Counted from the stretch's first letter, positions 1,030-16,172 are shown. The stretch is 32,000 nt of DNA from Ktedonobacterales bacterium (GCA_030167145.1 CP126532.1:180001-212000), one strand, 5' to 3'. Notes: generated from the letters alone by a model not told the origin. Program-made: numbers and translations.

Positions 1030-1054
1030 AGGCTCGCCCGTGGGAAACTCAGCG

Positions 1055-1681: not shown

Positions 1682-1870
1682 CGCACGTTTAGGCAATTGT
1701 CAGGATTGGAGGGCAAACTGCAAGGGTCAGCGTAAGGCAAATGCGCTACACTGGCCCTTACGGCTAGGCAAGCTCGCCAATCAGCGGTATCATAGGTTTT
1801 GTTGTTTTTCAAAACACGCCGATGGCGGCGCTACTCATGCGTCGCCCTACTGGAGTCGAGGATTTGTAGC

Positions 1871-2938
1871 ATGCGGTTAGGTTCAAAGACCAGACGGTGG
1901 GCCGGCTTCGGCCTCCTCGCATTAATCGCGACAGTCGGATTGAGCGCCTGCGCCGACAACGGCGCCAACTTCCTACAACCGGCTGGTCCGATTGCCGACA
2001 CGGAATCCGGCATCTTCTGGTGGCTCGTTCTGGGCGTCTCCACAGTCGTATTCGTCATCGTGACGACTTGGCTCTTGATCTCGATTGTCCGCTTCCGCGA
2101 CCGCCCCGGCGCACCTGAAGCGCACCAGACACCCGGTAACAACAAGGTCGAGCTTGCCTGGACCATTGCGCCCGCCATCTTGCTGTTCATCGTGCTCGGT
2201 TTCACCATCAGCACCATGTTCAAGCTCGATACCCCGCACAACAGCCAGGGCCAGCAAGTGCCCATCACCCTGCACGTCACCGCCATTGGGCATCAGTGGT
2301 GGTGGGAATTTGTCTATCCCGACCAAAAGATCGTCACCGCCGACGAAATGTATATTCCCACCGGCCAGGCTGTTGAAGTGACGCTCCTCTCCGACAATGT
2401 CATCCACAGCTTCTGGGTACCTGCCATCGCCGGCAAAGTTGACGTCATCCCTGGGCACCAGAACCAAATGTGGATGCTGGCAGATAAGGCTGGCCAGTAT
2501 CGCGGCGAATGCACCGAGTATTGCGGCAACCAGCACGCCCATATGGACTTCGCCGTTGTCGCCGTGTCCAGCGACGCCTTCAACACCTGGGTGACGGGCC
2601 AGCAAGCTCAAAGCACCAAACTTGTGGAGGGCGACCCCAACTACCAGGGCCAGCAAGTCTTCCTGACCTCCGGCTGCGTCGGCTGCCACAACATTAATGG
2701 CACCACCGCCCCTGGCAACAAGATCGGCCCGAACCTCACCCACTTCGGCAGCCGCCAATGGATCGCTGGCGAAGTGCTGAGCAATACTCCCGCGAACCTG
2801 GCGGACTGGATTCTGCACGCGCAAGACGTCAAGCCCGACGTGGACATGCCGAGCTTCGACGGCACCATGCCTCCCAATCCAGCACTCTCACCAACACAGA
2901 TCACCGAACTGGTGGCCTATCTTGAGAGCCTGAAATAG
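1871..2938 (+). CDS. ctaC: Cytochrome c oxidase subunit II with fused C-terminal cytochrome c domain (caa3-type)
   Basis: Lipobox-like signal (VGLSAC), two TM helices, CuA ligands (HSFWVP ... CTEYCGNQHAHM), and a C-terminal CVGCH heme c motif with a distal DMPSF Met. RBS GAGGA lies 8 nt upstream of ATG 1871. Confidence 0.93.
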   Translation: MRLGSKTRRWAGFGLLALIATVGLSACADNGANFLQPAGPIADTESGIFWWLVLGVSTVVFVIVTTWLLISIVRFRDRPGAPEAHQTPGNNKVELAWTIAPAILLFIVLGFTISTMFKLDTPHNSQGQQVPITLHVTAIGHQWWWEFVYPDQKIVTADEMYIPTGQAVEVTLLSDNVIHSFWVPAIAGKVDVIPGHQNQMWMLADKAGQYRGECTEYCGNQHAHMDFAVVAVSSDAFNTWVTGQQAQSTKLVEGDPNYQGQQVFLTSGCVGCHNINGTTAPGNKIGPNLTHFGSRQWIAGEVLSNTPANLADWILHAQDVKPDVDMPSFDGTMPPNPALSPTQITELVAYLESLK

Positions 2939-2993
2939 CGAGTCGCATCGTTCCAGGTGGGCGCTTGGGGTCAGGCGCTTGCCCTAACGTATG

Positions 2994-3011
2994 GGATGGC
3001 CTCTGCCATCC
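2994..3011 (+). other. Intercistronic stem-loop between ctaC and ctaD (7-bp stem ggatggc/gccatcc, loop ctct)
   Basis: Perfect inverted repeat read directly from the sequence. No U-tract follows, so it is not a canonical terminator. Function unknown. Confidence 0.35.
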
Positions 3012-3042
3012 TGTATGACCCCAATCTACAGAGGAGGACCCA

Positions 3043-4794
3043 ATGGCGGTCGGTACCATTGCGACCCGAGGTCGGGCCGCGAGAAAACGCTGGAGTCAGA
3101 CACCACTCGGCTCCTGGATCACCACGACAGACCATAAGAAAATTGGCATTCTCTACATTTACACCGGGATCATCTTCTTCTTCCTTGGGGGCATCGAGGC
3201 GGCATTGATCCGCTGGCAACTCTCAACTCCCGATGGCAAGTTGCTCCGGCCCGATGTCTATGACCAGATCTTCACGATGCACGGAACGACCATGATCTTC
3301 CTCTTCGTGATGCCCACCATGGCCGGATTCGGCAACTATTTGGTACCGCTGATGATCGGTGCCCGCGACATGGCCTTCCCTCGCCTGAACGCCCTTGGAT
3401 ACTGGTTGCTGTTCTTCGGCGGAATCTTCCTCTATAGTAGCTTCATTTCGGGTTCCGCCCCGAATGCTGGCTGGTTTAGCTATGCCCCACTAACCGAATG
3501 CACCCCTGCGGCGCTTTCCCAGGGCCTTGGCTCGCTCACCTTCCAGCAACAGGCAGCAGCAGCGGCACAGGCAGCGGCACAAGGCGGCCAGGGCTGCTTC
3601 GCCCCCGGTCAAAACGCCGACTTCTGGATTATCGGCATTAACCTGCTCGGCATCGCCTCGCTCCTTGGCGCGCTCAACTTCATCGTCACCATCCTGCGCC
3701 TCCGCGCCCCCGGCATGACCATCAACCGCATGCCGCTGTTCGTCTGGATGACCATGGTGACATCCTTCCTCCTCGTCTTCGCGCTGCCCAGCCTCACCGT
3801 CGCCAGCGCTCTGCTCCTCTTTGACCGCCATCTCGGCACACACTTCTATCAAGCGGGCTTTGGCGGTGACCCACTGCTCTGGCAACACCTCTTCTGGTCG
3901 TTCGGCCACCCGGAGGTGTATATCCTTATCTTACCCGCATTCGGCATGATTTCGGAGATTCTGCCCGTCTTCTCCGGCAAGCCGATCTTCGGCTACACCT
4001 TTGTCGCGTGGTCTGGCGTCGCCATTGGCTTCCTCAGTTTCACCGTCTGGGCGCACCATATGTTCGCCGTGGGCCTGCCGACCGTCGCCCAGGCGTTCTT
4101 TGCTAGCTCGACGACCCTGATTGCCATCCCGACCGCCGTCAAGATCTTCAACTGGGTCGCCACCACCTGGCACGGTAGGCTGAGATTTCACACGCCAATG
4201 CTCTTCGCCACCGGCTTCATCGCCATGTTCCTCATCGGCGGATTGAATGGTGCGGCGCTCGGTGTGGTCCCCTTCGACTACCAAATCACCGATACTTACT
4301 TCGTCGTCGCCCACATCCACTACGTACTCTTTGGTGGTGCTGCGATGGCGATCTTCGGCGGAATCTTCTACTGGTTCCCGAAGATGTCTGGCCGCAGGCT
4401 CAACGAGTCGCTTGGCAAGATCCAGTTCTGGCTGATGCTCATCGGCATGAATATCGCGTTCTTCCCGATGCACATTCTCGGCCTGATCGGCATGCCACGC
4501 CGTCAGTACACCTATCCGCCAAACCTCGGTTGGGATGGCCTGAACCTGCTCTCCAGCATCGGCGTCCTCTTCCTGATCGCGGCCTTCCTAGTGTTCCTCT
4601 TCAACTTTGTGAACACCATTCGCAAGCCGGCCGATCAGCCTGCCGACCCCTGGGACGCATTCACCCTCGAATGGGCCACCAGTTCACCGCCGCCGACCGA
4701 AAACTTCGAGACGATCCCCGTCGTCCGCAGCCGCCGCCCACTCTGGGATCAAAAACACCCCGACAAAGCGGACTGGCGCACAGCGGCGCACTAG
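3043..4794 (+). CDS. ctaD: Cytochrome c oxidase subunit I (heme-copper oxidase catalytic subunit)
   Basis: Hallmark motifs WFFGHPEVY-like (LFWSFGHPEVYILILPAFG), WAHHMF and HIHYVLFGG, with 12+ TM helices. Strong RBS GAGGAGGA before ATG 3043. Carries an unusual Gln/Ala-rich insertion (see findings). Confidence 0.96.
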   Translation: MAVGTIATRGRAARKRWSQTPLGSWITTTDHKKIGILYIYTGIIFFFLGGIEAALIRWQLSTPDGKLLRPDVYDQIFTMHGTTMIFLFVMPTMAGFGNYLVPLMIGARDMAFPRLNALGYWLLFFGGIFLYSSFISGSAPNAGWFSYAPLTECTPAALSQGLGSLTFQQQAAAAAQAAAQGGQGCFAPGQNADFWIIGINLLGIASLLGALNFIVTILRLRAPGMTINRMPLFVWMTMVTSFLLVFALPSLTVASALLLFDRHLGTHFYQAGFGGDPLLWQHLFWSFGHPEVYILILPAFGMISEILPVFSGKPIFGYTFVAWSGVAIGFLSFTVWAHHMFAVGLPTVAQAFFASSTTLIAIPTAVKIFNWVATTWHGRLRFHTPMLFATGFIAMFLIGGLNGAALGVVPFDYQITDTYFVVAHIHYVLFGGAAMAIFGGIFYWFPKMSGRRLNESLGKIQFWLMLIGMNIAFFPMHILGLIGMPRRQYTYPPNLGWDGLNLLSSIGVLFLIAAFLVFLFNFVNTIRKPADQPADPWDAFTLEWATSSPPPTENFETIPVVRSRRPLWDQKHPDKADWRTAAH

Positions 4795-4859
4795 CATGAG
4801 TGATGTGGAGGGCTTGGCAAGTATTGCTGTCCGCCTTCCACATCGCAATCAAGCGCATA

Positions 4860-4882
4860 GGGGCAGGGTCGCTTCTTGCCCC
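4860..4882 (+). promoter_or_regulatory. GC-rich stem-loop immediately downstream of ctaD (ggggcaggg ... cttcttgcccc)
   Basis: Stem of 8-9 bp (two G-U pairs) with a 5-nt loop, read from the sequence. It abuts ATG 4883. No U-run follows. Could be an mRNA stability or processing element or an attenuator. Confidence 0.35.
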
Positions 4883-4912
4883 ATGCGCCAGCACCGGAGC
4901 AACGCAGCATCT

Positions 4913-5485
4913 ATGTGGACCAAGACAGCGCCACGGCCAACGACACGCAGCATCGTCATTTTCGCCGTCACCACCGTGATTACGGCGAGCCTGCTGGCGC
5001 TGATGTGGGTACGGCTCATCCAAGCTGGCAATGCCGCGAGCAACGTCAATACATCGCCGCTCATCAATCGGGCCGCTCCCGACTTTGTCATCACCCCCTG
5101 GAACATGCCGACCAGCCAAACCATCAGGTTAGATAGCTTTAAAGGCCATCCAGTTGTTGTCAACTTCTGGGGATCGTGGTGCGCCGAATGTCAGGAAGAG
5201 CAGGCGATATTCCAGACCGTCTGGCAGCAATATCAGAATCAGGGCGTCCAGTTCATCGGTATTGCCTACAACGACAAGCAGGATACCGGCTCAGCCTATC
5301 TCAAGCAGTATGCCGTCACCTATCCTGCTGGTCCGCCGCAGGCCAACACCACGCCGGTTGACTATTCCGTAACCGGCGCGCCGGAGACCGTTTTTATCGG
5401 GCGCGATGGCATCGTCAAAGACAAAGTCCTCGGCCCGATGGACCAAGCATCCCTGGAACGCGAGATTCAGCAACTGTTGAAGTAG
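4913..5485 (+). CDS. Membrane-anchored thiol:disulfide oxidoreductase, TlpA/ResA/CcmG family
   Basis: N-terminal basic segment plus TM (SIVIFAVTTVITASLLALMWV) and thioredoxin active site WGSWCAECQ. Neighbours ccdA and the ccm genes. ATG 4913 preferred (GGAG upstream); 4883 and 4796 are alternatives. Confidence 0.85.
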   Translation: MWTKTAPRPTTRSIVIFAVTTVITASLLALMWVRLIQAGNAASNVNTSPLINRAAPDFVITPWNMPTSQTIRLDSFKGHPVVVNFWGSWCAECQEEQAIFQTVWQQYQNQGVQFIGIAYNDKQDTGSAYLKQYAVTYPAGPPQANTTPVDYSVTGAPETVFIGRDGIVKDKVLGPMDQASLEREIQQLLK

Positions 5486-5520
5486 TCGAGTAGCGCATCA
5501 CGCAAGCGGGAGATACTACT

Positions 5521-6306
5521 GTGGAAACGTTGACACATTTGGGATGGGGAGCAGCGCTCGTCGCCTTCGGCGCCGGCCTCGTTTCCTTCTTTTCCCCGTG
5601 TGTCGCGCCGCTCGTGCCAGCTTACATCGGCTACCTCTCTGGCACGTCAGCCCCCACTTCGAGCGGTGGATCAGCCGTGGCGGTCACTGTGCATCGCAAG
5701 TGGCTCAACCCCGCCCTTGTACCCTGCACACTGTTCATCAGCGGATTCTCGCTCGCGTTCATTACTCTCGGCTTGATCTCCGCCAGCTTTGGCGGTCTCA
5801 TCGTCGCCTATCGTCCGGTGCTTGAAACCCTGGCAGGCATTGTCATGCTCGCTATGGGCGCGTTCCTGCTTAACCTGCTGCCTCAGGGCGTTACCCGCCT
5901 GCTGATGCGCGAGCGGCGCATCCATCTGGGCAATTCGCGTCTCAGTGGCGGCATCCTGCGCGGAGCAGCCCCTGTGCTGCTCGGCATCGTCTTCGCCGCC
6001 GGGTGGACGCCCTGCATCGGACCAGTGCTCGCCGCCATCTACGCCTTCGCGGGCGCTTCCGGCGACCGAGGCACAGGTACCCTGCTTCTGGCATTTTACT
6101 CGCTCGGTTTCGCCCTGCCATTTCTGGCGGTTGGCCTGAGTTGGTCTGTTGGCCTGCGCGCGCTCACTTGGTTCCGCAAGCACGGCCAGATCGTCACGAC
6201 CGTCACAGGTGTCACGCTCATCACGCTTGGCATCCTCTATCTCGCGGGCGAGGCATCGCTGTTCGCCACCTGGGCACAGCAGCTACCCTCGTTCAGCCTG
6301 CGCTAG
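5521..6306 (+). CDS. ccdA: Cytochrome c biogenesis reductant transporter CcdA (DsbD-core family)
   Basis: Six-TM protein with the two conserved Cys-containing motifs FFSPCVAPLVPAY and GWTPCIGPVLAAI. GTG start with GGGAG RBS 8 nt upstream. Confidence 0.9.
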   Translation: METLTHLGWGAALVAFGAGLVSFFSPCVAPLVPAYIGYLSGTSAPTSSGGSAVAVTVHRKWLNPALVPCTLFISGFSLAFITLGLISASFGGLIVAYRPVLETLAGIVMLAMGAFLLNLLPQGVTRLLMRERRIHLGNSRLSGGILRGAAPVLLGIVFAAGWTPCIGPVLAAIYAFAGASGDRGTGTLLLAFYSLGFALPFLAVGLSWSVGLRALTWFRKHGQIVTTVTGVTLITLGILYLAGEASLFATWAQQLPSFSLR

Positions 6307-6336
6307 CGAGTCTGTTTGCTGGCAAAGAAGGGACAC

Positions 6337-6792
6337 ATGTTGCTCGCGCTTTCGATCCTGATGCGCACGGCGCACCTCATAGCCGGAGCCGTTTGGGTCG
6401 GGGGTAGCGTGATATATTTAGCTGTTATCATTCCGGGCCTGCGGTTGGGCTCCGCCAGCTCGCAAACCAGTGCGGCGATAGCCGCGCTCTTCCGTCGAGT
6501 AGTCAACATCTGTATCGGCGTCGAGCTTCTAACCGGCGTCTATCTGATTTTTGACCGCTTGAGCACCGTCAGTGTCGGCACAGCCTATATCGCGGTTCTG
6601 GTCGTCAAAATCGCGGCGGCGCTGGCGATGATCGCATTGGCGCTCTACCAGGCGCAGGAAGCACGGCGTCCAGCCAAGTATCGCGGACGCTTCTGGCGTC
6701 AGGTGCCGCGCTGGATTCTGGGCCTCGGCCTGTTGACATTCTTCCTGGGTGCGACCCTGGTAGGACTGTTCGACACCGCACTCTTACGGTAG
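6337..6792 (+). CDS. Four-TM membrane protein, CopD-like (HLxxGAVWVGG motif); function unconfirmed
   Basis: TM1 motif TAHLIAGAVWVGGSV resembles the CopD / copper-resistance-D family signature. RBS AAGAAGGGA precedes ATG 6337. Lies between ccdA and ccmE. Confidence 0.5.
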   Translation: MLLALSILMRTAHLIAGAVWVGGSVIYLAVIIPGLRLGSASSQTSAAIAALFRRVVNICIGVELLTGVYLIFDRLSTVSVGTAYIAVLVVKIAAALAMIALALYQAQEARRPAKYRGRFWRQVPRWILGLGLLTFFLGATLVGLFDTALLR

Positions 6793-6800
6793 CAACGCTC

Positions 6801-7292
6801 ATGAAGAGGAGAGATGGAGTCGGCTCCATGCAAATAGAACAGATCGCGCAACCATCCAGCATCCCCACACCCACACGGGCGCGGCGTCGCAAATTGCCAT
6901 GGGGCTTTCTCATCGCTGGCATCGCCATCGCGGGAGCCGTGCTGTACCTCGTCTTCGCCAACACCAGCGCCTCCGCCGAGTACTACATGACGATCAAAGA
7001 GTTGCGCGCCTGCACCACCTGCTCCGCGCGGGACGTTCGCGTCGCTGGCACCGTCGTTCCCAACTCCGTTGTCAAGAGCGACCAAACGCAAATCATTCAC
7101 TTCAGCATCTCCGATGCTGGTGGCGCGCTTCCCGTCGTCTACTCTGGCACCGTACCCGACATCTTCCGCGCGGGCGTCCAAGTCGTCGTCGAGGGCAAAC
7201 TTGATAGCCATGGCGTCTTTCAGGCGCAGACCCTGCTCGCCAAATGTCCATCCAAGTTCCAGTCCGCCACACCACCCGCATACAGCAATTAG
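6801..7292 (+). CDS. ccmE: Cytochrome c maturation heme chaperone CcmE, Cys-type variant
   Basis: N-terminal membrane anchor and an OB-fold-like body (VRVAGTVVPNSV ... IFRAGVQVVVEGKL) that aligns with E. coli CcmE. The C-terminal LLAKCPSKF occupies the place of LAKHDENY. ATG 6828 (better RBS GGAG) is an alternative start. Confidence 0.85.
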   Translation: MKRRDGVGSMQIEQIAQPSSIPTPTRARRRKLPWGFLIAGIAIAGAVLYLVFANTSASAEYYMTIKELRACTTCSARDVRVAGTVVPNSVVKSDQTQIIHFSISDAGGALPVVYSGTVPDIFRAGVQVVVEGKLDSHGVFQAQTLLAKCPSKFQSATPPAYSN

Positions 7293-7301
7293 GAGCCATC
7301 C

Positions 7302-9305
7302 GTGCATTTCTCCGACCTTGGCGCGATCGCGCAGCTTCTGGCGTTCATTTTCGCCGTATATGCGCTTCTTGCCTCTCTCCTTGGCGGCATCCGGCAACAA
7401 TCGGCCCTGCTTGCCAGTGGGCGGCGCGCCGTGCTCATGGTCGCGGGCTTCCTCCTGATTGCCGCTATCGCCCTCATCGTCTCCTTCCTTCAGCGCGACT
7501 TCGGCCTGCGCTATGTTGCCGAGCATTCCAGCACTGCGATGCCCTGGTACTATACCCTCGCCGCGTTCTACGGCGGCCAAGAAGGTTCACTCCTCTACTG
7601 GACCACTATGCTTGCCATCTTCTCCTCAGTCGCGGTCCTGCTGCACCGCCGCGCCCCCGCTGGCCTCATGCCCTATGTCGTCGCGGTGCTCATGACGATT
7701 GATGGCTTCTTCCTCTTCGTCCTCAATTTCGTCACCACGCCCTTCGGCCGTCTCCGCATCGCCCCCACCGACGGCCAGGGCCTCAATCCTATCCTGCAAG
7801 ACCCTGGCATGCTCGTCCATCCACCGATGCTGCTCATGGGCTACATGAGCTGGTCCATACCCTTCGCCTTCGCCATGGCCGCCATGATCAGCGGCAGACT
7901 CGATGGCGCCTGGCTCCGCGCCATCCGCCGCTGGACCCTCGTCGCCTGGAGCATCCAAACCACTGGCCTGCTGCTCGGCGCGTGGTGGGCTTATCATGTC
8001 CTTGGCTGGGGCGGCTACTGGGGCTGGGATCCCGTAGAGAACGCGGCACTGCTACCCTGGCTCACCGCGACCGCATTCCTCCACTCCATCATGGTCCAGG
8101 AGCGTCGTGGCTCCCTCAAAGTCTGGAATCTTGGCCTCATCCTGGCTACCTTTGGCCTCTCGCTCTTCGGCACCTTCGAGGTCCGCAGCGGTATCATTAC
8201 CTCTGTCCATTCCTTCGCCTATTCCGCGATTGGCCCGTACTTCCTGGGTTTCCTTGCCTTCGCGGTACTCGGCTCGCTCGCGATCTTCATCTACCGCCTC
8301 CCACGCCTGCATCCCGAACACGAATTCGACTCCTTCGTCTCTCGTGAAGGCAGCTTCCTGCTCAACAACTTCCTGCTCACTGGCATTGCCTTTGTCGTCT
8401 TCTGGGGCACCATCTTCCCCATCATCTCCGAGACCGTTCGTGGCCAGACCATGACCGTCGGCACCGCCTTCTATCAGCAAGCCACAGGACCACTGTTCCT
8501 CCTGCTGATCTTCACCATGGGCATCGGCCCGCTTCTTGCCTGGCGACGCGCCTCACTCACCAGCATTTGGCGTAACTGTCGTTGGCCAGCTCTTGCCGCC
8601 GCGCTCTGCGCCATCATCCTGCCAGTGCTCGGCGTCACCAACATCCTCGCCAACATTGGCTTCGCTGTCTGCGCCTTCGCCGCTGGCACGATCATCTACG
8701 AACTGTGGCGCGGCGTTCGTGTTCGCCACGCCCACGGCGAGGCATATCACCGCGCCCTCGTCACGCTTATCAGCCGTCACCGCCAGCGCTACGGCGGCTA
8801 CCTCGTCCATCTCGGTCTCATCACCCTGGCGATTGGCGTCATCGGCTCGCAGTTCTTCCAGGCGAAGAACGAATTCATCCTCCACAAAGGCGACACAGCG
8901 CACATCAACGGGTACGCCATCACCTATCAGGGCATCAGTGGCCACATGGACGGCGATGTCCAGGTCATCCAGACGCGCTTCGGCGTCTCCTACAACGGCC
9001 AGCACATGCAAGACATCGCTCCCGGCGAACGCATCTTCCCCGGCTTCGAGAGTCAGCCTACCAGCATTGTCTCGATTACCACCCATAACCTGTCGGACCT
9101 CTACGTCTTCCTGTCCGGGTATGAAGGCACAGACCTCGCCTCCATCAAAGTCTTCATCAACCCACTCGTTCCGCTTGTCTGGCTTGGTGGCCTGCTGATG
9201 CTCTTCGGTGGCATCGTCTGCTGGTGGCCGCCTCGTCCGCTAGCAAAACGCATCACCGAGCGCACGCCTCCCACATCCGCGAAGCCAGTGGAGGTGATGG
9301 CATGA
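7302..9305 (+). CDS. ccmF: Cytochrome c heme lyase subunit CcmF
   Basis: 667-aa polytopic protein with the WWD domain WGGYWGWDPVENAALLPWL and conserved His residues. GTG start with AGGAG RBS. Its stop overlaps the ccmH start (ATGA). Confidence 0.93.
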   Translation: MHFSDLGAIAQLLAFIFAVYALLASLLGGIRQQSALLASGRRAVLMVAGFLLIAAIALIVSFLQRDFGLRYVAEHSSTAMPWYYTLAAFYGGQEGSLLYWTTMLAIFSSVAVLLHRRAPAGLMPYVVAVLMTIDGFFLFVLNFVTTPFGRLRIAPTDGQGLNPILQDPGMLVHPPMLLMGYMSWSIPFAFAMAAMISGRLDGAWLRAIRRWTLVAWSIQTTGLLLGAWWAYHVLGWGGYWGWDPVENAALLPWLTATAFLHSIMVQERRGSLKVWNLGLILATFGLSLFGTFEVRSGIITSVHSFAYSAIGPYFLGFLAFAVLGSLAIFIYRLPRLHPEHEFDSFVSREGSFLLNNFLLTGIAFVVFWGTIFPIISETVRGQTMTVGTAFYQQATGPLFLLLIFTMGIGPLLAWRRASLTSIWRNCRWPALAAALCAIILPVLGVTNILANIGFAVCAFAAGTIIYELWRGVRVRHAHGEAYHRALVTLISRHRQRYGGYLVHLGLITLAIGVIGSQFFQAKNEFILHKGDTAHINGYAITYQGISGHMDGDVQVIQTRFGVSYNGQHMQDIAPGERIFPGFESQPTSIVSITTHNLSDLYVFLSGYEGTDLASIKVFINPLVPLVWLGGLLMLFGGIVCWWPPRPLAKRITERTPPTSAKPVEVMA

Positions 9306-9865
9306 ACTGGACATCCCTAATCCGCCGCCCAGCATTCCTCATCGCCCTTGCTGTGCTCATCATCATCGGGCTAGTCTGGGGCATCACCGCCGTTCGCGCC
9401 GCTCAGCCTCTGACACTCGATCAGCACGTCTATTCCATCGCCAACCAGCTACAATGCCCCGTCTGCAATGGAGAATCCGTCGCCGACTCGCCATCACCTG
9501 TCGCCCAGGAAATTCGCTCGGTCATCCGCGAACAGATCATCGAGGGCAAGTCGGACCAGCAAATCCTCAGCTACTTCCACCAGCACTACGGCGATAGCAT
9601 CCTCGAAAGCCCGCCAAAACAAGGCTTCACATCGCTCATCTGGCTCGCGCCGATCATCATGCTCCTCGCGGGCCTCGTCCTCCTATGGAGCGTCGCGCGT
9701 GAATGGAACGCACGTCCGAAACTTGCCGGTGACCCAGATACGGGTGCAGACACCGTCCTGGAGCTTACCGCCGACGAGCGCCAGCGTTACCTTAGGCAGC
9801 TACAACACGAGCTTGACCTTGAAACCATCCAGAATCTACCCGCGACGAAGGAGGTAAGCGCATGA
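9302..9865 (+). CDS. ccmH: Cytochrome c maturation thiol oxidoreductase CcmH (CycL-type)
   Basis: Signal/anchor, LRCxxC-type motif LQCPVCNGESVADS, a second TM (LIWLAPIIMLLAGLVLLW) and a short cytoplasmic tail. ATG 9302 overlaps the ccmF stop. The ORF-track extension to 9224 is rejected. Confidence 0.85.
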   Translation: MNWTSLIRRPAFLIALAVLIIIGLVWGITAVRAAQPLTLDQHVYSIANQLQCPVCNGESVADSPSPVAQEIRSVIREQIIEGKSDQQILSYFHQHYGDSILESPPKQGFTSLIWLAPIIMLLAGLVLLWSVAREWNARPKLAGDPDTGADTVLELTADERQRYLRQLQHELDLETIQNLPATKEVSA

Positions 9866-10332
9866 TGCCGATTCTTTTCGCCATCCTCCTTGGTCTCACT
9901 GCCGTCGTCATCGTCATCTATCCTTTGCTGGGTCTGAATACTTCTCACGTCGAAGAAGCCACTCCGGCCCCCATCGCCGACGCAGCCGAACATGAGCGCA
10001 CTGCCAAACAGGCCCTGCTTGACGTGGACTTCGACTACCGCCTCGGCAATCTCGAAGCCACCGACTACGCCGACCTGCGCGAGCGCTATGAGCGACGTGC
10101 GCTCTCCGCGATGAAAGCGCGCTACGACCACGAGCATGAACTCGATGCGCTCATAGATCAGCAGCTAGCGCACCTTCGCGCCCAACAAAATGCGCAGCGC
10201 GACCCCCACATCTCGACGAAATCCCATCGCCGCTCACTATCTCCTTCTACAACCACGCGGCGATCAGCCAAGACTGCTAGTGATTCATCTTCAGCGCAAG
10301 GCATCCGCGCGCGGCGGCGGAGGGGAGTATAG
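9862..10332 (+). CDS. Uncharacterised single-TM protein embedded in the ccm operon (possible CcmI-N-like module)
   Basis: N-terminal TM (ILFAILLGLTAVVIVIYPLLGL), then a helical motif ERTAKQALLDVDFDYRLGNLEATDYADLRERY and a basic disordered tail. Strong RBS AAGGAGG. Its start overlaps the ccmH stop. Confidence 0.7.
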   Translation: MMPILFAILLGLTAVVIVIYPLLGLNTSHVEEATPAPIADAAEHERTAKQALLDVDFDYRLGNLEATDYADLRERYERRALSAMKARYDHEHELDALIDQQLAHLRAQQNAQRDPHISTKSHRRSLSPSTTTRRSAKTASDSSSAQGIRARRRRGV

Positions 10333-10333
10333 C

Positions 10334-11971
10334 ATGCGGCGACTCACTCCCATCCTTGCCCTATCTCTGCTTGCCGTGGCGCTTTGCCTCGTCTTGCTGC
10401 CTGCATCTCATGTCCAGGCAGCCGCGCGCCTTGATACCACCGGTGCCCTCACCGTCGCCGTAGAGAACATCACCCATGACAATGCGCCCGTAGACAGCCA
10501 GACTATCACGCTTCAGGCGCTCCAGGGCGGCACAACGCAGGATGCCGCCACCGTAACCACCAATAACGCTGGCCGCGCGACTTTCACTGGCCTCGATGCC
10601 AGCGGCAACACCACCTACGCCATCTACACCCGCTTCCAGGGCGGCCTCTTCTTTGGCTCTGCCATCAGCTTCGATACCAGCGCAACGCAGCAAACCACTC
10701 TCACTGTGGCTGATGCTACCACCAGCGACGCGGCGCTGCGCATCACCAGCGCCAACATCCTTATCAACCAGGTAAATAAAACCAAGGGCCTGATCTCCGT
10801 CGGAGAGTTCCTAACCTTCGCCAACACCGGCAACACCGCTTATGTCGGCAACCTGACACCTGCCAATGGCAAGCCAATGAATCTGCTGCGCTTCTCGCTT
10901 CCACCCGACGCAACCAACCTCACCCTTGGCGCTGGTTTCGCCCAGACGCAGGCCGTTCAGGTTGATACCGGCTTTGGCGCCAATGCCACCGTCCCACCTG
11001 GCGCCTCGAACTTCGCCTTCGCCTTCGATGTCCCCTACACTGGAACCTCCTACACCTTCACCTACAAAGCCGAATATCCCACCGACAAGGTGCTCGTCCT
11101 CTCGTCGCCGGGCATGAACGCGACCTCCACCAACCTTGCCCCTCAACCGCCCATCAGTGCCAGTGGCCAGAGCTTTGCCGTGCTCTCCGGCGGCACACAG
11201 CCGTCCGGCAACACCGTCACCTTTGCACTGAATCATTTACCGCTTGCTGGCGAAGACCCAGATTTTGATTTCCGCCTGCTGCTCATCGTCGGCGCAATCC
11301 TCACCCTGCTGCTACTCATCCTACTTGGCCTCTACGTCCGTCGTGGCGCGCTGGTTGTAGCCTTGCGTCCGGCTCCGCGCACCTCGCGTACTCGCGCGTA
11401 TCTCCCTACCAGCGACCAAACCCGCACAGCCGAGCGCAAGCAACTCCTCCAAGCCCTGCTCGACCTCGACACCGCTCGCACATCTGGCGCAGTGAGCGAG
11501 AACAAATACCGCGCCCGCCAATCCGAACTCCGCGCTTCCCTCCGCGCCCCCCTCGCCGCTGATACCGATTCACCCAACCTTGGCGAGAATACCAAAGCGC
11601 ACGCTCCCAGCCGCGCTCCTGACCGCCCGACCACGCCATCGGCAACTGACTCTCTCGCCAAATCGGCAGAATCGGCAACTCACGCCCAGACACTCATGAA
11701 TGAAAAATCGGCAGAATCGGCAACTCCGGCAACTGCCACAATCCAAAATCGGGGCGAAAACGGCGAAAATTCTCCGGCCAATTCCCGTCATAACCCGCCA
11801 TTTCCCCCCAACCACACCGCAACATCGGCAGAATCGGCAACTGGCGTTGCTGTCTCCGTAAATGAAAAATCGGCAGAATCGGCAACTGTCAGCGCGACCA
11901 CATCGGCCATTCCGGCCACCGCCACCAGCAAGAACAGGCGATCCAAATCGCCGCGAGGAGGAGCAAGATGA
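10334..11971 (+). CDS. Uncharacterised secreted/membrane protein embedded in the ccm operon. Layout: signal peptide, beta-rich ectodomain (carboxypeptidase-regulatory-like first domain), TM, repeat-containing cytoplasmic tail
   Basis: Signal peptide with AxA site (SHVQA-AARL). A Thr/Asn/Gly-rich beta-type region of about 340 aa. TM LLLIVGAILTLLLLILLGLYV followed by RR. The tail carries ERKQLLQALLDLD and four KSAESAT repeats. RBS GGAGGGGA precedes ATG 10334. Its stop overlaps the ccmA start (ATGA). Confidence 0.75.
   Translation: MRRLTPILALSLLAVALCLVLLPASHVQAAARLDTTGALTVAVENITHDNAPVDSQTITLQALQGGTTQDAATVTTNNAGRATFTGLDASGNTTYAIYTRFQGGLFFGSAISFDTSATQQTTLTVADATTSDAALRITSANILINQVNKTKGLISVGEFLTFANTGNTAYVGNLTPANGKPMNLLRFSLPPDATNLTLGAGFAQTQAVQVDTGFGANATVPPGASNFAFAFDVPYTGTSYTFTYKAEYPTDKVLVLSSPGMNATSTNLAPQPPISASGQSFAVLSGGTQPSGNTVTFALNHLPLAGEDPDFDFRLLLIVGAILTLLLLILLGLYVRRGALVVALRPAPRTSRTRAYLPTSDQTRTAERKQLLQALLDLDTARTSGAVSENKYRARQSELRASLRAPLAADTDSPNLGENTKAHAPSRAPDRPTTPSATDSLAKSAESATHAQTLMNEKSAESATPATATIQNRGENGENSPANSRHNPPFPPNHTATSAESATGVAVSVNEKSAESATVSATTSAIPATATSKNRRSKSPRGGAR
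11638..11887 (+). repeat. Intragenic direct repeats: 4 perfect copies of atcggcagaatcggcaact (19 bp), two extended to 27 bp
   Basis: Copies at 11662-11680, 11707-11725, 11824-11842 and 11869-11887, with spacing 45/117/45 bp. The 27-bp identity is 11699-11725 versus 11861-11887. A partial copy atcggcaact lies at 11638-11647. In frame the repeat encodes (K/T)SAESAT. Confidence 0.9.
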
Positions 11972-12738
11972 GCCTCCGCATGGCAAATATCCCAGACCCC
12001 TCCCTCTCACTCCCGCCTGTAGGCCATCAGAGCGCCGTCGAAGTCGCCAACGTCGGCAAGGTCTACGGCGTCCGCCCTGTGCTGCGCGGCATCAGCTTCT
12101 CAGTTCCCACCGGCGTCTCACTTGCGCTGCTCGGTCCTAATGGCGCGGGCAAGACCACCCTGCTCCGTGCCCTCGCCACCCTGACCACCTTCACCACTGG
12201 AACCGCCAGCATCCTTGGCCTAGACCTCCGCGCAGACGCTGCGCAGATCCGCCACATCATCGGGTATGTCGGCCATCAGCCACACCTCTACGATGAACTA
12301 ACCGCCTCTGAAAATCTGCTCTTCTTCGCCCGCATGTACGGCCTACCCGACGGCCCCCGCCGCACCACTGAGCTACTCGAACGGGTCGGCCTGCGCCTCA
12401 AGACCAGCGACCGCGTCCGCACGCTCTCGCGCGGCCAAGTGCAACGCCTCGCCCTGGCCCGAGGTATCCTGCACGATCCTGCTGTGTTGCTACTCGACGA
12501 ACCCGATACTGGTCTCGACGAAGACGCTGCGGCCCTGCTGCAAACCATTATCAACGAGCGCCAGCAGCGCGGCCAGACCACACTCTTCACCACCCACCAG
12601 CTAGATCGCGCCTTATCGCTCAGCACACAAAGCGTCGTCCTTGTCAATGGCCGCCTCGTCTACGCTGGTCCGGCAGCAGATCTGACGCCCGCCGAGGTGC
12701 GCGCCCTCTACGCAACCAGCAAGAGGAGGACGCCATGA
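11968..12738 (+). CDS. ccmA: Heme exporter ABC transporter ATP-binding protein CcmA
   Basis: Walker A GPNGAGKTT, signature LSRGQVQRLALA, Walker B LLLDEP. RBS GAGGAGGA. Followed directly by ccmB/ccmC with overlapping stop and start codons. Confidence 0.88.
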   Translation: MSLRMANIPDPSLSLPPVGHQSAVEVANVGKVYGVRPVLRGISFSVPTGVSLALLGPNGAGKTTLLRALATLTTFTTGTASILGLDLRADAAQIRHIIGYVGHQPHLYDELTASENLLFFARMYGLPDGPRRTTELLERVGLRLKTSDRVRTLSRGQVQRLALARGILHDPAVLLLDEPDTGLDEDAAALLQTIINERQQRGQTTLFTTHQLDRALSLSTQSVVLVNGRLVYAGPAADLTPAEVRALYATSKRRTP

Positions 12739-13409
12739 CATTCCGCCTCTTCTGGAACCAGATGCTCGCCATCCTCTGGAAAGACCTGCGCTGCGAACTC
12801 CGCACCCGCCAGGTCTGGATCAGCATGGCCATGTTCGCCCTGCTCGTGCTGATAGTCTTCAATTTCGCCTTTGACCTGCGCGTAGACAATAAAGCCGCCG
12901 TCGCGCCTGGCGCGCTATGGATCGCCTTCGTCTTTGCCAGCACGCTCGGCCTTGGACGCACCATCACTGCCGAACAAGAGAAAGGCTTGATGGACCGTCT
13001 GCTGCTCTGCCCGGTAGACCGCAAGGCCATCTACTTCGCGAAGTTACTCGGCAACCTTGTCTTCATTGGCGTGGTGGAGGTCATTGCCGTCCCCATCTTC
13101 GCCGTGCTTTACGATCTGCCAGTCTTCACCGGCGGCATCATCCCCATCGTCGTCCTCGGCACGATTGGCATTGCCGCGCTCGGCACCATCTTCTCCGCTA
13201 TTGCGGCGAACACCCAGGCGCGGGAGGTATTGCTCCCCCTGCTCCTGTTTCCCTTGCTTGTTCCTGTCGTTATAGCCGCCGTCAAGGCAACCCAGGCTCT
13301 GGTCAACCCTGTCAGTGGTGATGCGCCCTGGATTGGACTTATCGCTGCCTTCGATGTCATCTTCCTCAGTATCTCAGCCGTCACGTTCCAATACGTGATT
13401 GAGGAGTGA
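12735..13409 (+). CDS. ccmB: Heme exporter membrane protein CcmB
   Basis: Six-TM protein with a CcmB-like N-terminus (ILWKDLRCELRTR) and the EQEKGLMDRLLLCPV motif typical of the family. ATGA overlap with ccmA. Confidence 0.85.
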   Translation: MTFRLFWNQMLAILWKDLRCELRTRQVWISMAMFALLVLIVFNFAFDLRVDNKAAVAPGALWIAFVFASTLGLGRTITAEQEKGLMDRLLLCPVDRKAIYFAKLLGNLVFIGVVEVIAVPIFAVLYDLPVFTGGIIPIVVLGTIGIAALGTIFSAIAANTQAREVLLPLLLFPLLVPVVIAAVKATQALVNPVSGDAPWIGLIAAFDVIFLSISAVTFQYVIEE

Positions 13410-13413
13410 AACC

Positions 13414-14172
13414 GTGCAAATTGCAAGTTCGCGCCCGGCCCAACCGGGCACGGCGACACCAACACCCCTGCCGCCATGGCTTATGCCAGTCCGCCGTTAT
13501 GGCGAATATGTTCTCGGCGCCGCCGCCGCCCTGAGCATCCTCGCCACCATCTGGGCCGCGTTCGTATACGCCCCCACCGACGCCCTGCAAGGGAATGTAC
13601 AGCGCATCGAATATTTCCATGTCCCGATGGCGTGGGTGGCCTATCTGGCCTTTTTCGTCGTCTTTGTTGCCAGTATTCTCTATCTCTGGCGCAAAAACGC
13701 CCGCTGGGATGTGCTAGCCCGCGCCAGCGCCGAAGTTGGCACTGTCTTCACGACCCTCGTTCTTATCACTGGGTCGCTCTGGGGGCGCACCGTCTGGGGC
13801 ACCTGGTGGCAGTGGGATGCCCGGATGACCACCACGCTCATTCTTTGGTTCATCTATGTAGGGTATCTGCTGCTTCGCTCCTACACCGGCCTATCCGAGG
13901 GGGGAGCACGCGCCGCCGCGGTTTTGGGCATCATCGGCTTCATTGACGTGCCAATCAACTACCTCTCAGTAACATGGTGGCGCACATTGCACCCCAGTTA
14001 TCAGGTGCCGCTTGGCAGCGAAGCACAGGCCCCCGCCTCTGTCGTCCTGGCGCTCATGCTGGGACTTCTGGCTTTCACCCTGCTCTACGCCTTCCTAACT
14101 GTGCAGGTCTATCGGCTTAACAAAATCCAGCGCGCGGCCCAGGTGCTGCGAGTACGCGCAGAGATGGAATAG
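13414..14172 (+). CDS. ccmC: Heme exporter / heme-handling protein CcmC
   Basis: WWD motif WGTWWQWDARMTTTLILW plus flanking conserved His residues (YFHVPMAW, RTLHPS). GTG 13414 with GAGGAG 8 nt upstream is preferred over TTG 13399. Confidence 0.9.
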   Translation: MQIASSRPAQPGTATPTPLPPWLMPVRRYGEYVLGAAAALSILATIWAAFVYAPTDALQGNVQRIEYFHVPMAWVAYLAFFVVFVASILYLWRKNARWDVLARASAEVGTVFTTLVLITGSLWGRTVWGTWWQWDARMTTTLILWFIYVGYLLLRSYTGLSEGGARAAAVLGIIGFIDVPINYLSVTWWRTLHPSYQVPLGSEAQAPASVVLALMLGLLAFTLLYAFLTVQVYRLNKIQRAAQVLRVRAEME

Positions 14173-14184
14173 GAGTTGCCACAC

Positions 14185-14358
14185 ATGAACGACAACGGAT
14201 TTCTCATCGCCGCCTATCTCATCGTATGGCTGGGATTACTCGGCTATCTAGGCTGGGTTACGCTTCGCATGCGTGGCGTACAGGCAGACCTCCAGGCTGT
14301 TCGCGAACTGGTCGAGCAGCGAGATCAGCCGAACGCCAGTACGCCGCACCACGAGTGA
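14185..14358 (+). CDS. ccmD: Small single-TM heme exporter protein CcmD
   Basis: 57 aa with a single TM (FLIAAYLIVWLGLLGYLGWVTL) followed by basic residues, immediately after ccmC. AGGAG lies 9 nt upstream of ATG 14185. Confidence 0.7.
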   Translation: MNDNGFLIAAYLIVWLGLLGYLGWVTLRMRGVQADLQAVRELVEQRDQPNASTPHHE

Positions 14359-14417
14359 ACGAGGTCCCGCACGGCTCACGTTAATCGCCGTTACCGGCAG
14401 CAGCAAGAGCAAAAAGT

Positions 14418-14449
14418 GGCCAGGAATGAAGAAGCATCTAGTCCTGGCC
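14418..14449 (+). terminator. Stem-loop after ccmD (8-bp stem ggccagga/tcctggcc, 16-nt loop), possible end of the ccm operon
   Basis: Perfect inverted repeat 60 nt downstream of the ccmD stop, followed by gccagtcttt. The large loop and weak U-tract keep confidence low. Confidence 0.3.
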
Positions 14450-14458
14450 GCCAGTCTT

Positions 14459-14467
14459 TGATACAAT
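14459..14467 (+). promoter_or_regulatory. Candidate extended -10 promoter (TGaTACAAT) for the ctaF-like/ctaE pair
   Basis: tgatacaat matches the TGnTAnnnT extended -10 and lies 73 nt upstream of ATG 14540, in the only sizeable gap of the cox/ccm block. No convincing -35. Confidence 0.35.
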
Positions 14468-14539
14468 GGTAGATGCTTCAAAGCAGAGTACGCGCTCACC
14501 CTACCGTGAGCGGAAAACCCTAGATCGAGGAGAGACCAC

Positions 14540-14998
14540 ATGCCCGAGAACTATGAGGTGGTGTACACCCATCCGACTGGGGCCACCGCTACATTCATCC
14601 GCCACGATGGCGAGCTTGACGCCCTCGCCAAAGCGCTCGACTCAGAGCAATTCTGGGTCTTCAAGAATGTGAAGTCCTTGTTGGTACGCAATGACGTAGG
14701 CGACCTCGCCGAAGCGAATCGCTTGATGCGCGCCATCGGCTTCAGCGAAACCGTCCGCGAAATTACCAAACCTCAGCCGGTCGCTGTCCCCGAGCCAGTT
14801 GCAGTCGCCGCGCCCGTCGAAGAACATCACGGTTTGCACCTACCCGGCCCAAGCTACTGGCCAATACTCCTGGGAGCCTCCGTCACCATTGCGCTTGGTG
14901 GATGGTTGACATTCCAGACACTTTCCATCACCGTCATCGCCATCGGCATGGTGCTGACCTTCATCTGCATGATCGGCTGGGGTCTCGAACAATACTGA
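14540..14998 (+). CDS. Cytochrome oxidase small subunit, CtaF(subunit IV)-like 2-TM C-terminus fused to an unknown ~100-aa N-terminal soluble domain
   Basis: The C-terminal HLPGPSYWPILLGASV ... two-TM segment resembles the SPHSWWP-containing second half of actinobacterial CtaF. Sits directly upstream of ctaE. RBS GAGGAGA. Confidence 0.6.
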   Translation: MPENYEVVYTHPTGATATFIRHDGELDALAKALDSEQFWVFKNVKSLLVRNDVGDLAEANRLMRAIGFSETVREITKPQPVAVPEPVAVAAPVEEHHGLHLPGPSYWPILLGASVTIALGGWLTFQTLSITVIAIGMVLTFICMIGWGLEQY

Positions 14999-15053
14999 TT
15001 GGCTCCGCCCAATCCGTTGTAATAGCACTACCACGGAAGAGGAATTATCCATC

Positions 15054-15671: not shown

Positions 15672-15761
15672 GATAAGGTATACTAATCCCACGTCCGCAT
15701 CCGCAAGCGGGATATTTCGTCTCGCTTGCTGCGGCTACGGATCGAGGAAAGTTGGCCGCGC

Positions 15762-16172
15762 ATGGAAGACGAGTTCAGACAAGACGACTCTTCTGCCGGT
15801 CCACTCACTCTGGAGCGTCCGGATTCCATAGACAGCAGGTTGCGTTGCGCCATCTGCGAACGTCGGCTTGGCAATGCGCTATTCTTCGTCGAGGAGACCG
15901 GTGATGTTCCGGAGCCACGTGGCTCCTGGGTGCTCTGTGCCGCCTGCAACGATGCCGTCCACGAACAGATGGAGCGCGCTCAGGTTCGGTCGCCACTGCG
16001 CCTACGAATCGCTATCGGCGTCGTCGCCTCCGACCGCACACCCAAAGCGCGCCGCGAACATTTTGGTCAGCTTACCGACGATGGCTGGGCAAAGCTGCTC
16101 ATCTGGCTCTTCCCGCTCACCATGCTCGTCCATTTGGCCATCATCGTCGCCATCGCCGGCTTGATCAAATAA
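15762..16172 (+). CDS. Hypothetical zinc-ribbon protein with C-terminal TM anchor
   Basis: CAIC ... CAAC (CxxC-N27-CxxC) followed by a hydrophobic C-terminus LLIWLFPLTMLVHLAIIVAIAGLI. Start uncertain (ATG 15762 or TTG 15726). Confidence 0.5.
   Translation: MEDEFRQDDSSAGPLTLERPDSIDSRLRCAICERRLGNALFFVEETGDVPEPRGSWVLCAACNDAVHEQMERAQVRSPLRLRIAIGVVASDRTPKARREHFGQLTDDGWAKLLIWLFPLTMLVHLAIIVAIAGLIK

Follow-up and report, generated by a model that had tools for sequence, protein, structure and literature searches.

A Cys/Phe-type CcmE with a juxtamembrane cysteine pair in a Ktedonobacterales cytochrome c maturation operon

Gene content of the ccm operon

The analyzed window, a 32,000-nucleotide stretch of a Ktedonobacterales genome (GCA_030167145.1 CP126532.1:180001-212000), carries an ordinary System I (Ccm) operon set within an operon for a caa3-type cytochrome oxidase. 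The genes and motifs are listed below by their position in the window.

1799..2938, plus strand: CoxII bearing a cytochrome c domain at its C terminus, CVGCH at aa 293 (Pfam COX2 and Cytochrom_C)
4796-5485, plus strand: CcmG/ResA-like thioredoxin, WCAEC (Pfam AhpC-TSA, Redoxin, and Thioredoxin; NCBIfam ResA and DsbE)
5521-6306, plus strand: CcdA (Pfam DsbD_TM)
6316..6792, plus strand: small four-helix CopD-family membrane protein (Pfam CopD, E 2.1e-5, below cut-off)
6801..7292, plus strand: ccmE, Cys-type heme chaperone, 163 aa (Pfam, phmmer against PDB chains, AF2 and Foldseek)
7011..7022, plus strand: CTTC of CcmE, C71 (tgc 7011-7013) and C74 (tgc 7020-7022)
7245..7259, plus strand: CPSKF motif of CcmE, C149 (tgt 7245-7247) and F153 (ttc 7257-7259)
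7302..9305, plus strand: ccmF, single, full-length heme lyase subunit (Pfam PF01578 and PF16327)
9302..9865, plus strand: ccmH, intact LQCPVC redox motif (PF03918, E 2.3e-31)
9862..10332, plus strand: possible CcmI-like N-terminal segment (TIGR03142, E 2.9e-4, a weak match below cut-off)
10331..11971, plus strand: conserved protein, exported or anchored, encoded between ccmA and the ccmI-like gene (tblastn)
11968-12738, plus strand: ccmA (Pfam ABC_tran)
12735-13409, plus strand: ccmB (Pfam CcmB)
13399-14172, plus strand: ccmC, WWD motif, His74 and His198 (Pfam Cytochrom_C_asm, TIGR01191)
14176..14358, plus strand: candidate ccmD, 60 aa, single transmembrane (TM) helix, directly 3' of ccmC (position and size only)

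The ccmE product matched PF03100 (E 1.4e-27) and is predicted to bind heme and transfer it to apocytochrome c. Searches with phmmer against PDB chains returned the CcmE structures 8ce8_E, 1sr3, and 2kct, which were also the best Foldseek matches of the AF2 model (pLDDT 85). Pfam, AF2, and Foldseek agreed on an OB-fold beta-barrel behind a single N-terminal TM anchor; in the model, a linker that includes a short helix (65-70) joins the TM helix (aa 34-58) to the barrel (79-147), which ends in a flexible tail. The gene is encoded together with ccmABC, ccmF, and the candidate ccmD. The NCBI gene call starts at the second in-frame ATG (6828) and gives 154 aa, with residue numbers shifted by 9.

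CcmF is single and full-length, as initially annotated, and aligned end to end with Thermus thermophilus CcmF 6zmq (E 2.5e-98). It contains the WWD motif WGGYWGWDPVENA and His173/261/303/493, numbers equal to or within two residues of 173, 261, 303, and 491, which we take to be the conserved histidines of E. coli CcmF. CcmC likewise retains its WWD motif and two histidines. The intact CcmH reported at 9302-9865 was borne out by the alignment of LQCPVC with LRCPKC of the PDB CcmH structures 2hl7 and 2kw0, and both motif cysteines were kept in 93/95 related loci. CcmH was encoded in 88/89 loci with a CxxC-bearing CcmE (CxxC loci) and enough flanking sequence, in 4/4 non-CxxC Cys/Phe loci, and in the one Cys/Tyr locus (1/1).

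The conserved gene order was Trx-[CcdA]-CopD-like-CcmE-F-H-I-like-unknown-A-B-C-D. The CcmI-like position was conserved in 70/80 loci and the candidate ccmD in 55/80, the Pfam CcmD search giving no match. The protein encoded at 10331..11971 had tblastn matches in 64/80 loci, weak Pfam hints only, and a low-complexity C-terminal tail in which the unit KSAESAT is directly repeated; its start was placed at 10331 from a signal-peptide-like sequence. The thiol-reducing branch, CcmG/ResA-like thioredoxin and CcdA, spans 4796..6306. The CopD-like protein was modeled with a pLDDT of 90.5, and the PDB fold search with this model gave no significant match. CoxII, through its cytochrome c domain, is a local substrate of the Ccm system.

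The CPSKF tail and its distribution

In the phmmer alignments to PDB chains, LLAKCPSKF lay against VLAKHDENY of E. coli CcmE, pairing C149 with His130 and F153 with Tyr134, and it also aligned with ..TKCP.. of Desulfovibrio vulgaris. The tail residue at the His130 position is present, but as Cys rather than His, and Phe153 occupies the place of the axial-ligand Tyr four residues on. Alignment to solved CcmEs upheld the initial annotation in this respect, and its coordinates and named codons (tgt 7245-7247, ttc 7257-7259, and CTTC at 7011-7022) were all exact.

That 7245-7259 contains a sequencing error, or that CcmE is degenerate and non-functional, has a negligible probability. A protein identical (100%) to the window CcmE occurs in an independent public record, an NCBI Ktedonobacterales MAG, with the motifs kept in >100 orthologues. 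An artefact or pseudogene was rejected because the motif persists in hundreds of orthologues, including those in complete genomes of cultured species; moreover, the operon is intact and a cytochrome c substrate adjoins it. No point in support of an artefact or degenerate gene was found. The locus is a normal Ktedonobacteria heme chaperone gene within a complete cytochrome c maturation operon.

CPS[KR]F was present in 119/120 closest homologues, and CPSKF in 145/145 Ktedonobacteria-type loci parsed. When GTDB species genomes were scanned for LAKCPSKF, 349 CcmE relatives were confirmed, the best 80 of which were all from Ktedonobacteria, the cultured Ktedonobacter racemifer, Thermogemmatispora, Dictyobacter, and Thermosporothrix among them. 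Breadth was surveyed with the 150 cluster representatives (50% identity) nearest the query. Among the 142 that were full-length, 99 had Cys/Tyr, 40 Cys/Phe, and 2 Cys/Met tails, the remaining one being the added E. coli His/Tyr reference. Tyr, Phe, and Met swap repeatedly at the Tyr134 position of Cys-type CcmEs; a rough NJ tree shows 15 or more state changes in this column. In Chloroflexota outside Ktedonobacteria, 106/110 CcmEs were Cys/Phe. The Cys/Phe form is not rare and extends beyond Ktedonobacteria to other Chloroflexota, as their majority form.

Much of this is in line with published surveys. Chloroflexi were described among the carriers of Cys-type CcmE, Phe was noted in place of Tyr in four cases, and CcmH was found in approximately one third of the bacteria with Cys-type CcmE (Stevens et al. 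2011, PMC3601427). The initial view that Cys-type systems characteristically lack CcmH had therefore already been revised in 2011: its absence is not characteristic of the class (PMC3601427). Shevket et al. 2018 (PMC6204919) give Phe at ~3% of Tyr134 positions and describe Tyr134 as not essential. Literature searches on CPSKF and Ktedonobacter CcmE returned nothing beyond Stevens et al. 2011. Cys for His, Phe for Tyr, and coexistence with CcmH are thus already in print as genome observations. The combination first read as an unusual hybrid is the standard arrangement in Ktedonobacteria and the other Chloroflexota surveyed.

The heme chemistry of Cys/Tyr CcmEs is disputed. In Methanosarcina acetivorans CXXXY CcmE, heme attachment depends on the Cys (Gupta et al. 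2022, PMC9084895); the CcmEs of D. desulfuricans and M. acetivorans are reported to bind heme covalently, and that of D. vulgaris is reported to bind ferric heme non-covalently through Cys (PMC3884852). Against a distinct chemistry without Tyr, as first suggested for the window protein, speak loci L081 (Cys/Phe) and L162 (Cys/Tyr), which have identical synteny and CcmH in both; a Tyr-Phe swap in matching operons argues for near-equivalence of the two residues.

Beyond the identity, anatomy, conservation, and distribution documented here, we infer the following for Phe153 and the heme chemistry. C149 would accept heme from CcmABCD, by thioether formation with a vinyl group or by thiolate contact, and the heme would then pass from CcmE to the canonical CcmF/CcmH lyase. 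The Tyr hydroxyl may be dispensable where Cys binds heme, making Tyr and Phe near-equivalent, and an aromatic side chain at 153 would suffice to position the tail on heme. CcmH, the CcmG-like thioredoxin, and CcdA presumably keep the apocytochrome CxxCH reduced, as usual.

The juxtamembrane cysteine pair

The extra CxxC outside the membrane anchor, also noticed initially, was confirmed: CTTC lies in the loop joining the juxtamembrane helix to the first barrel strand, outside the membrane, and this loop was confidently modeled by AF2 (pLDDT about 91-93). A cysteine pair, CxxC or CxxxC, was found in 120/120 closest homologues and 145/145 Ktedonobacteria-type loci; in both sets it was invariant as a pair, and a lone Cys was never seen. 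It was absent from 110/110 other Chloroflexota CcmEs, and among the 150 cluster representatives, only the 12 closest, Ktedonobacteria-like ones carried it (7/142 full-length and 5 fragments). The intervening dipeptide was variable (TT 36, TS 20, SS 14, and HD 10), without the Pro/Gly of thioredoxin-type sites, and the spacing was sometimes CxxxC. Sister clades have a Gly/Pro-rich loop of equal length, of AKGPxxG type, at this position. The literature searched contained no description of the juxtamembrane pair; confined to Ktedonobacteria, this lineage-specific part appears to be new.

Several assignments were discarded. The pair does not form a thioredoxin-like site, since AF2 places it in a linker loop without a thioredoxin fold. 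A lipobox was rejected, with H, S, N, R, or A before C71 and the Cys ~13 residues past the TM segment, as was a cytochrome-like CxxCH, His never following C74. Four other cysteines were kept only in the CxxC clade, namely, CopD-like C66, CcmF C436 and C640, and CcmB C92; as disulfide partners they were dismissed, all lying in predicted TM segments, with a contrast confounded with phylogeny. Contrasts for the pair rest on 10 to 14 non-CxxC loci from few lineages.

The C71/C74 pair, a Ktedonobacteria innovation, most likely forms a disulfide that stiffens the juxtamembrane loop. Against a structural disulfide count the 145/145 invariance, stronger than expected of a dispensable staple, and the general behavior of CxxC disulfides, which are redox-active more often than structural. 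Redox-active protection of Cys149 is the main alternative, and it lies near the disulfide relay suggested initially: a dithiol or disulfide at C71/C74 that communicates with Cys149, for example, as a mixed-disulfide cap in the oxidizing exterior, or that makes CcmH-like contact with apocytochrome thiols, with the neighboring CcmG-like thioredoxin and CcdA possibly reducing it again. Such a relay seems doubtful, although the invariance of the pair within the clade, its place in a confidently modeled juxtamembrane loop, and the membrane-anchored thioredoxin and CcdA genes immediately upstream speak for it. In sequence, the loop lies between residues equivalent to Phe37 and Arg61 of E. coli, which are listed with Leu127 and Lys129 as "previously proposed" functional residues (PMC6204919); by analogy with E. 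coli CcmE, in which tail residues face the membrane (PMC10457321), closeness of the tail to the loop is plausible. Leu127 and Lys129 are located at the base of the E. coli CcmE tail. Yet all other Cys-type CcmEs manage without the pair, including all 110 sister Chloroflexota proteins, which share the Cys/Phe tail, CcmG, and CcmH, and neither the highly variable dipeptide, which lacks the Pro/Gly of tuned redox sites, nor the varying spacing suits a relay. It is unlikely that the pair takes an active part in heme handling, whether as an intrinsic thiol switch for reversible capping or regeneration of Cys149 or as a thiolate ligand replacing Tyr.

Metal "knuckles" and Sco-type CxxxC sites resemble a CxxC/CxxxC with Thr, Ser, His, or Asp between the cysteines, and C71/C74 might on this likeness bind Zn, Cu, or Fe, in a dimer or with C149, perhaps in connection with the adjoining CopD-family protein and the Sco1/oxidase context. 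The CopD-like gene lies directly upstream of ccmE in 125/127 CxxC loci, and CopD-like Cys66 is kept only in the CxxC clade (135/137 versus 0/6). The gene is not tied to the pair, however, and was rejected as a strict CxxC partner, being present in 5/10 non-CxxC Cys/Phe loci; a P0127-like clade lacks both the CopD-like gene and the CxxC. By the positive-inside rule, Cys66 is read from the sequence as close to the cytoplasmic terminus of a TM helix, a clade-specific Cys is confounded with phylogeny, and no conserved His or fourth ligand was found in CcmE. A metal site is thus very improbable. The explanation that probably covers the whole locus is an ordinary System I with Cys149 as carrier, Phe roughly equivalent to Tyr, and a structural C71/C74 disulfide.

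Significance and comparison with known systems

In E. coli-based models of System I, holo-CcmE is released by a ligand switch from P-His2 to Tyr134 (PMC9616876), Tyr134 taking over the heme iron. Across the whole phylum, Chloroflexota combine an otherwise canonical Ccm machine, CcmH included, with a CcmE having neither this His nor this Tyr. The Tyr/Phe swaps in matching operons are a natural test of whether the Tyr hydroxyl is needed when Cys binds heme, and suggest that it is not. If a phylum-wide Tyr-less Cys/Phe class holds true, the Tyr ligand switch would be no general requirement of System I; cultured Ktedonobacteria, e.g., K. racemifer DSM 44963, make the question tractable. The cysteine pair is a clean clade-specific addition that bears on thiol protection of exposed Cys-type chaperones in aerobes; if redox-active, it would equip CcmE with a relay of its own, which the neighboring CcmG-like thioredoxin and CcdA would service. 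Existing knowledge is not overturned, two of the three features being previously in print, and the window protein is a known kind of CcmE with a modest new feature, the cysteine pair.

The variant System I (System I*) was reportedly defined by Allen et al. in 2006 by CxxxY and no CcmH, the definition also being said to include no CcmG in Desulfovibrio and no CcmD, H, and I in archaea. With System I*/CcmE* of Desulfovibrio and archaea (Allen et al. 2006; Goddard et al. 2010; PMC9084895), the window CcmE has in common Cys for His, the CPSK[Y/F] tail, and the OB-fold with N-terminal membrane anchor, D. vulgaris 2kct being a direct match in sequence and fold. In contrast to System I*, it has Phe instead of the Tyr of CxxxY and carries the added juxtamembrane CxxC, and its operon encodes CcmH with an intact CxxC, a CcmG-like thioredoxin, CcdA, and a candidate CcmD. 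CcmF is single and full-length, unlike the split CcmF of many archaea.

Fold, topology, and operon partners are the same as those of E. coli System I CcmE (HxxxY; 1sr3, 8ce8), and the histidines and WWD motifs of CcmC and CcmF are conserved. The CcmH motif, a CcmG-like WCxxC thioredoxin, and CcdA also follow the canonical system, from which CPSKF in place of HxxxY departs, with Cys for His130 and Phe for Tyr134. The proposed P-His2 to Tyr134 switch is impossible without a Tyr134 counterpart, so the mechanism must differ at least there. Unlike the CTTC loop, the loop of E. coli CcmE, KRETQQMPEVGQ, is free of cysteines. Like CcmH (LRCxxC) and CcmG/ResA (WCxxC) of the same pathway, the window CcmE has a CxxC on the outer membrane face, but without a thioredoxin or CcmH fold, with no Pro in the dipeptide, and with varying spacing. 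The categories of Stevens et al. 2011 (PMC3601427), i.e., Chloroflexi, a minority with Phe for Tyr, and roughly one third with CcmH, fit the window CcmE exactly; that survey provides counts, without sequences, experiments, or mention of the CxxC. Unlike in that survey, Phe is here the majority state in Chloroflexota and not a rarity.

CcmE of the window and its operon

The ORF at 6801-7292 (+) encodes a CcmE of 163 aa with the C-terminal sequence ...QTLLAKCPSKFQSATPPAYSN, and its product matched Pfam CcmE with an E value of 1.4e-27. In phmmer alignments to PDB chains, LLAKCPSKF was paired with VLAKHDENY of E. coli, which placed C149 (codon 7245-7247) at His130 and F153 (7257-7259) at Tyr134, and the Cys-type D. 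vulgaris CcmE 2kct was aligned likewise. The AlphaFold2 model (pLDDT 85) comprises a transmembrane (TM) helix 34-58, a short helix 65-70, and an OB barrel 79-147, with solved CcmEs as its top structural matches. The CTTC pair, C71 and C74 within 7011-7022, is located in the turn after the short helix at a local pLDDT of about 91-93. Coordinates and alignments agreed with the initial annotation in its description of Cys149, Phe153, the CTTC pair, and a CcmH with LQCPVC. Judged by these comparisons, the protein belongs to the CcmE family and would be expected to work like a CcmE. The start codon is ambiguous: the longest ORF, used for numbering, runs from 6801, and the public NCBI annotation from the second ATG at 6828, giving 154 aa; AGGAG is found at 6807-6811, 16 nt 5' of this ATG.

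The gene encodes a genuine CcmE. Its Ccm operon is canonical, complete if the candidate CcmD and CcmI-like ORFs are counted, and adjoined by a gene for a cytochrome c substrate; the ccm cluster sits within a caa3-type oxidase operon (window 25-16000).

Genes of the oxidase and ccm region (window positions; strand where assigned)
25-1029, ctaB-like (UbiA family)
1016-1681, Sco1
1799-2938, CoxII with fused cytochrome c domain (CVGCH)
3043-4794, CoxI
4796-5485, CcmG/ResA-like thioredoxin (WCAEC)
5521-6306, CcdA
6316-6792 (+), small CopD-family membrane protein
6801-7292 (+), CcmE
7302-9305, CcmF
9302-9865, CcmH
9862-10332, weak CcmI-like ORF
about 10331-11971 (+), conserved exported protein, uncharacterised
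11968-14172, CcmA, CcmB, and CcmC
14176-14358 (+), candidate CcmD, 60-aa single-TM ORF
14540-14998, weak CoxIV-like ORF
15054-15671, CoxIII

All firmly assigned ccm components are canonical except CcmE. The alignment of CcmF with its T. thermophilus counterpart spans the full length, and the protein contains the WWD motif; in residue number, its histidines 173, 261, 303, and 493 equal or differ by no more than 2 from the four conserved histidines in E. coli. The CcmC histidines, His74 and His198, presumably flank the WWD motif, as expected for the family, and LQCPVC of CcmH was aligned to LRCPKC in solved CcmH structures. The 60-aa ORF immediately 3' of ccmC, conserved in 55 of 80 loci, had no Pfam CcmD match and is a CcmD candidate by position alone.

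The full ccm-in-oxidase arrangement, with ctaB-like, CcdA, and CoxIV-like genes adjacent, was present in at least 12 of 80 Ktedonobacteria genome loci; most others had cox-gene matches several kb upstream of ccm and no adjacent CcdA. The CopD-like protein encoded directly 5' of ccmE has 158 aa and four helices, matched Pfam CopD below the cut-off (E 2.1e-5), and carries an invariant Arg17, His20, and Trp27-x-Gly-Gly in helix 1. Its gene was found in 125/127 loci whose CcmE has a juxtamembrane CxxC or CxxxC (CxxC-type loci) and in 5/10 non-CxxC Cys/Phe loci; 213 homologues were retrieved, and those among the matches listed were all Ktedonobacteria-like, with annotations of either CopD or a hypothetical protein. 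A PDB fold search with its AlphaFold2 model (pLDDT 90.5) gave no significant match. The ccmI-like ORF overlaps the longest form of the downstream ORF (10190-11971) by about 140 nt; for the downstream gene, a start close to 10331 is more likely. The product of the latter, encoded between the ccmI-like ORF and ccmA, begins like a signal peptide, gave a weak indication of CarboxypepD_reg, and has a TM segment and a low-complexity tail, where four repeat copies with a unit of 21-27 nt (11654-11887) encode KSAESAT; one sister clade has a Zn-ribbon protein and a 399-aa uncharacterised protein at this position.

Distribution of Cys/Phe CcmE, CcmH and the cysteine pair

A protein from a Ktedonobacterales MAG (P0001) was 100% identical to the query. 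CPS[KR]F was present in 119 of the 120 closest homologues and CPSKY in the other one, and all 120 had the cysteine pair, spaced CxxxC in seven and CxxC in the rest. Scanning GTDB species genomes for LAKCPSKF yielded 349 CcmE relatives that were confirmed as such; the best 80 all came from Ktedonobacteria, among them the cultured K. racemifer, Thermogemmatispora, Dictyobacter, Thermosporothrix, Tengunoibacter, and Ktedonosporobacter. Gene order was conserved from the thioredoxin through the CcmD candidate. Genomes and metagenomes supplied 161 loci, 145 of them of the CxxC type, and CcmH was encoded in 88 of the 89 CxxC-type loci with sufficient downstream DNA.

Two loci deviated in layout: in one (L139), ccmF seems to be cut short and ccmH to be missing from the interval between ccmE and ccmA, owing to a deletion or a misassembly, and in the other (L077), ccmE-ccmF-ccmH contains additional DNA and ccmH lies downstream of ccmE at a distance of about 5 kb. 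Further cysteines, all in predicted TM segments, were kept only in the CxxC-bearing clade, namely, CcmF C436 (98/111 versus 0/5 in others) and C640 (103/111 versus 0/5), CcmB C92 (64/76 versus 0/4), and CopD-like C66 (135/137 versus 0/6), a pattern inseparable from shared ancestry in the present sample.

Outside this clade, a phmmer search of 1.84 billion cluster representatives produced 3655 matches; the best 150 were aligned together with the query and the E. coli reference. By the residues at the His130/Tyr134 positions, the 142 full-length aligned sequences comprised 99 Cys/Tyr, 40 Cys/Phe (7 with CxxC, query included), and 2 Cys/Met, the last one being the His/Tyr reference from E. coli; the alignment showed one additional representative with His/Phe. 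The Met variants read CPSKM and the His-type sequence with Phe reads HPDRF (P0137, P0163, and P0192); in the former, Met could serve as a heme-iron ligand. With a profile of the non-CxxC Cys/Phe sequences, 110 more proteins were retrieved, 106 Cys/Phe and 4 Cys/Tyr, none with CxxC (0/110), and the named members were Chloroflexota or Dehalococcoidia MAGs. On a rough NJ tree, Fitch parsimony required at least 15 changes in the Tyr column and one or two gains of CxxC. Two metagenomic or MAG loci, L081 (CPSKF) and L162 (CPSKY), share one gene order across about 18 kb, with the same neighbours on either side and CcmH in both, and thus offer a naturally occurring exchange of Tyr and Phe within one machinery.

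From the homologue, locus, and tree surveys it therefore follows that Cys/Phe CcmE together with CcmH is the norm in Chloroflexota, not the unusual combination initially proposed, that Tyr and Phe interchange within the same machinery, and that the cysteine pair alone is specific to Ktedonobacteria. The three features on which a hybrid chemistry had been postulated are present, and that interpretation is partly supported, but two of them are ordinary in the phylum and already in print. Cys-type CcmEs were reported to be far more numerous than the first archaeal and Desulfovibrio set, with 'chloroflexi and firmicutes also' among the carriers, Phe in place of Tyr in four cases, and CcmH in roughly one third of the bacteria with such a CcmE (Stevens et al. 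2011, PMC3601427).

The C71/C74 pair

The extra CxxC that had been pointed out is a real, invariant, clade-specific feature and apparently undescribed; the literature search found no paper that mentions CPSKF in CcmE, the CcmE of Ktedonobacteria, or a CcmE with a CxxC. In sister lineages, a Gly/Pro-rich AKGPxxG loop of the same length stands where the C71/C74 loop is. The two cysteines always occurred together and never unpaired, the dipeptide between them varied and was Thr/Ser-rich, and the spacing was occasionally CxxxC. With this loop replacement, constant pairing, variable dipeptide, and occasional CxxxC, a disulfide that staples the loop is a better fit than either a metal site or a finely tuned redox site. 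A redox-protective role of the pair for the exposed Cys149 is kept under consideration as a less likely reading, as the pair is absolutely invariant and the thioredoxin and CcdA genes lie a short way upstream.

Heme handling and relation to known Ccm systems

CcmABCD would deliver heme to Cys149, from where it would pass to CcmF/H, and Phe153 would provide an aromatic contact without an iron-ligand role. The hydroxyl ligand appears dispensable where Cys is present, because Tyr and Phe swap freely, as sampled in the Cys-type background only; thiolate or thioether chemistry, or the CcmC and CcmF ligands, might conceivably be enough. According to Shevket et al. (2018, PMC6204919), Phe occupies the Tyr134 position in about 3% of CcmEs, and Tyr134 is non-essential, yet matters for efficient holo-CcmE formation. 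In M. acetivorans, heme attachment needs the Cys of CXXXY (Gupta et al. 2022, PMC9084895), and the Desulfovibrio data conflict, with covalent heme in D. desulfuricans versus non-covalent ferric heme bound via Cys127 in D. vulgaris (2013 review, PMC3884852). As the current E. coli release model involves a ligand switch from CcmC P-His2 to CcmE Tyr134 (PMC9616876), the window protein offers a tractable natural test of this Tyr step, together with a small, well-defined question on the cysteine pair.

The window CcmE shares with the Cys-type class its one robust criterion, Cys at the His130 position. It differs from System I*, the variant defined in 2006 by a CxxxY CcmE and no CcmH (archaea, Desulfovibrio), in that Tyr is absent (CPSKF) and the locus has CcmH; both criteria had already been relaxed by the field as of 2011 (Stevens et al. 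2011, PMC3601427). The label that fits best is a canonical System I whose CcmE is Cys/Phe, in a Ktedonobacteria subtype with an extra juxtamembrane cysteine pair.
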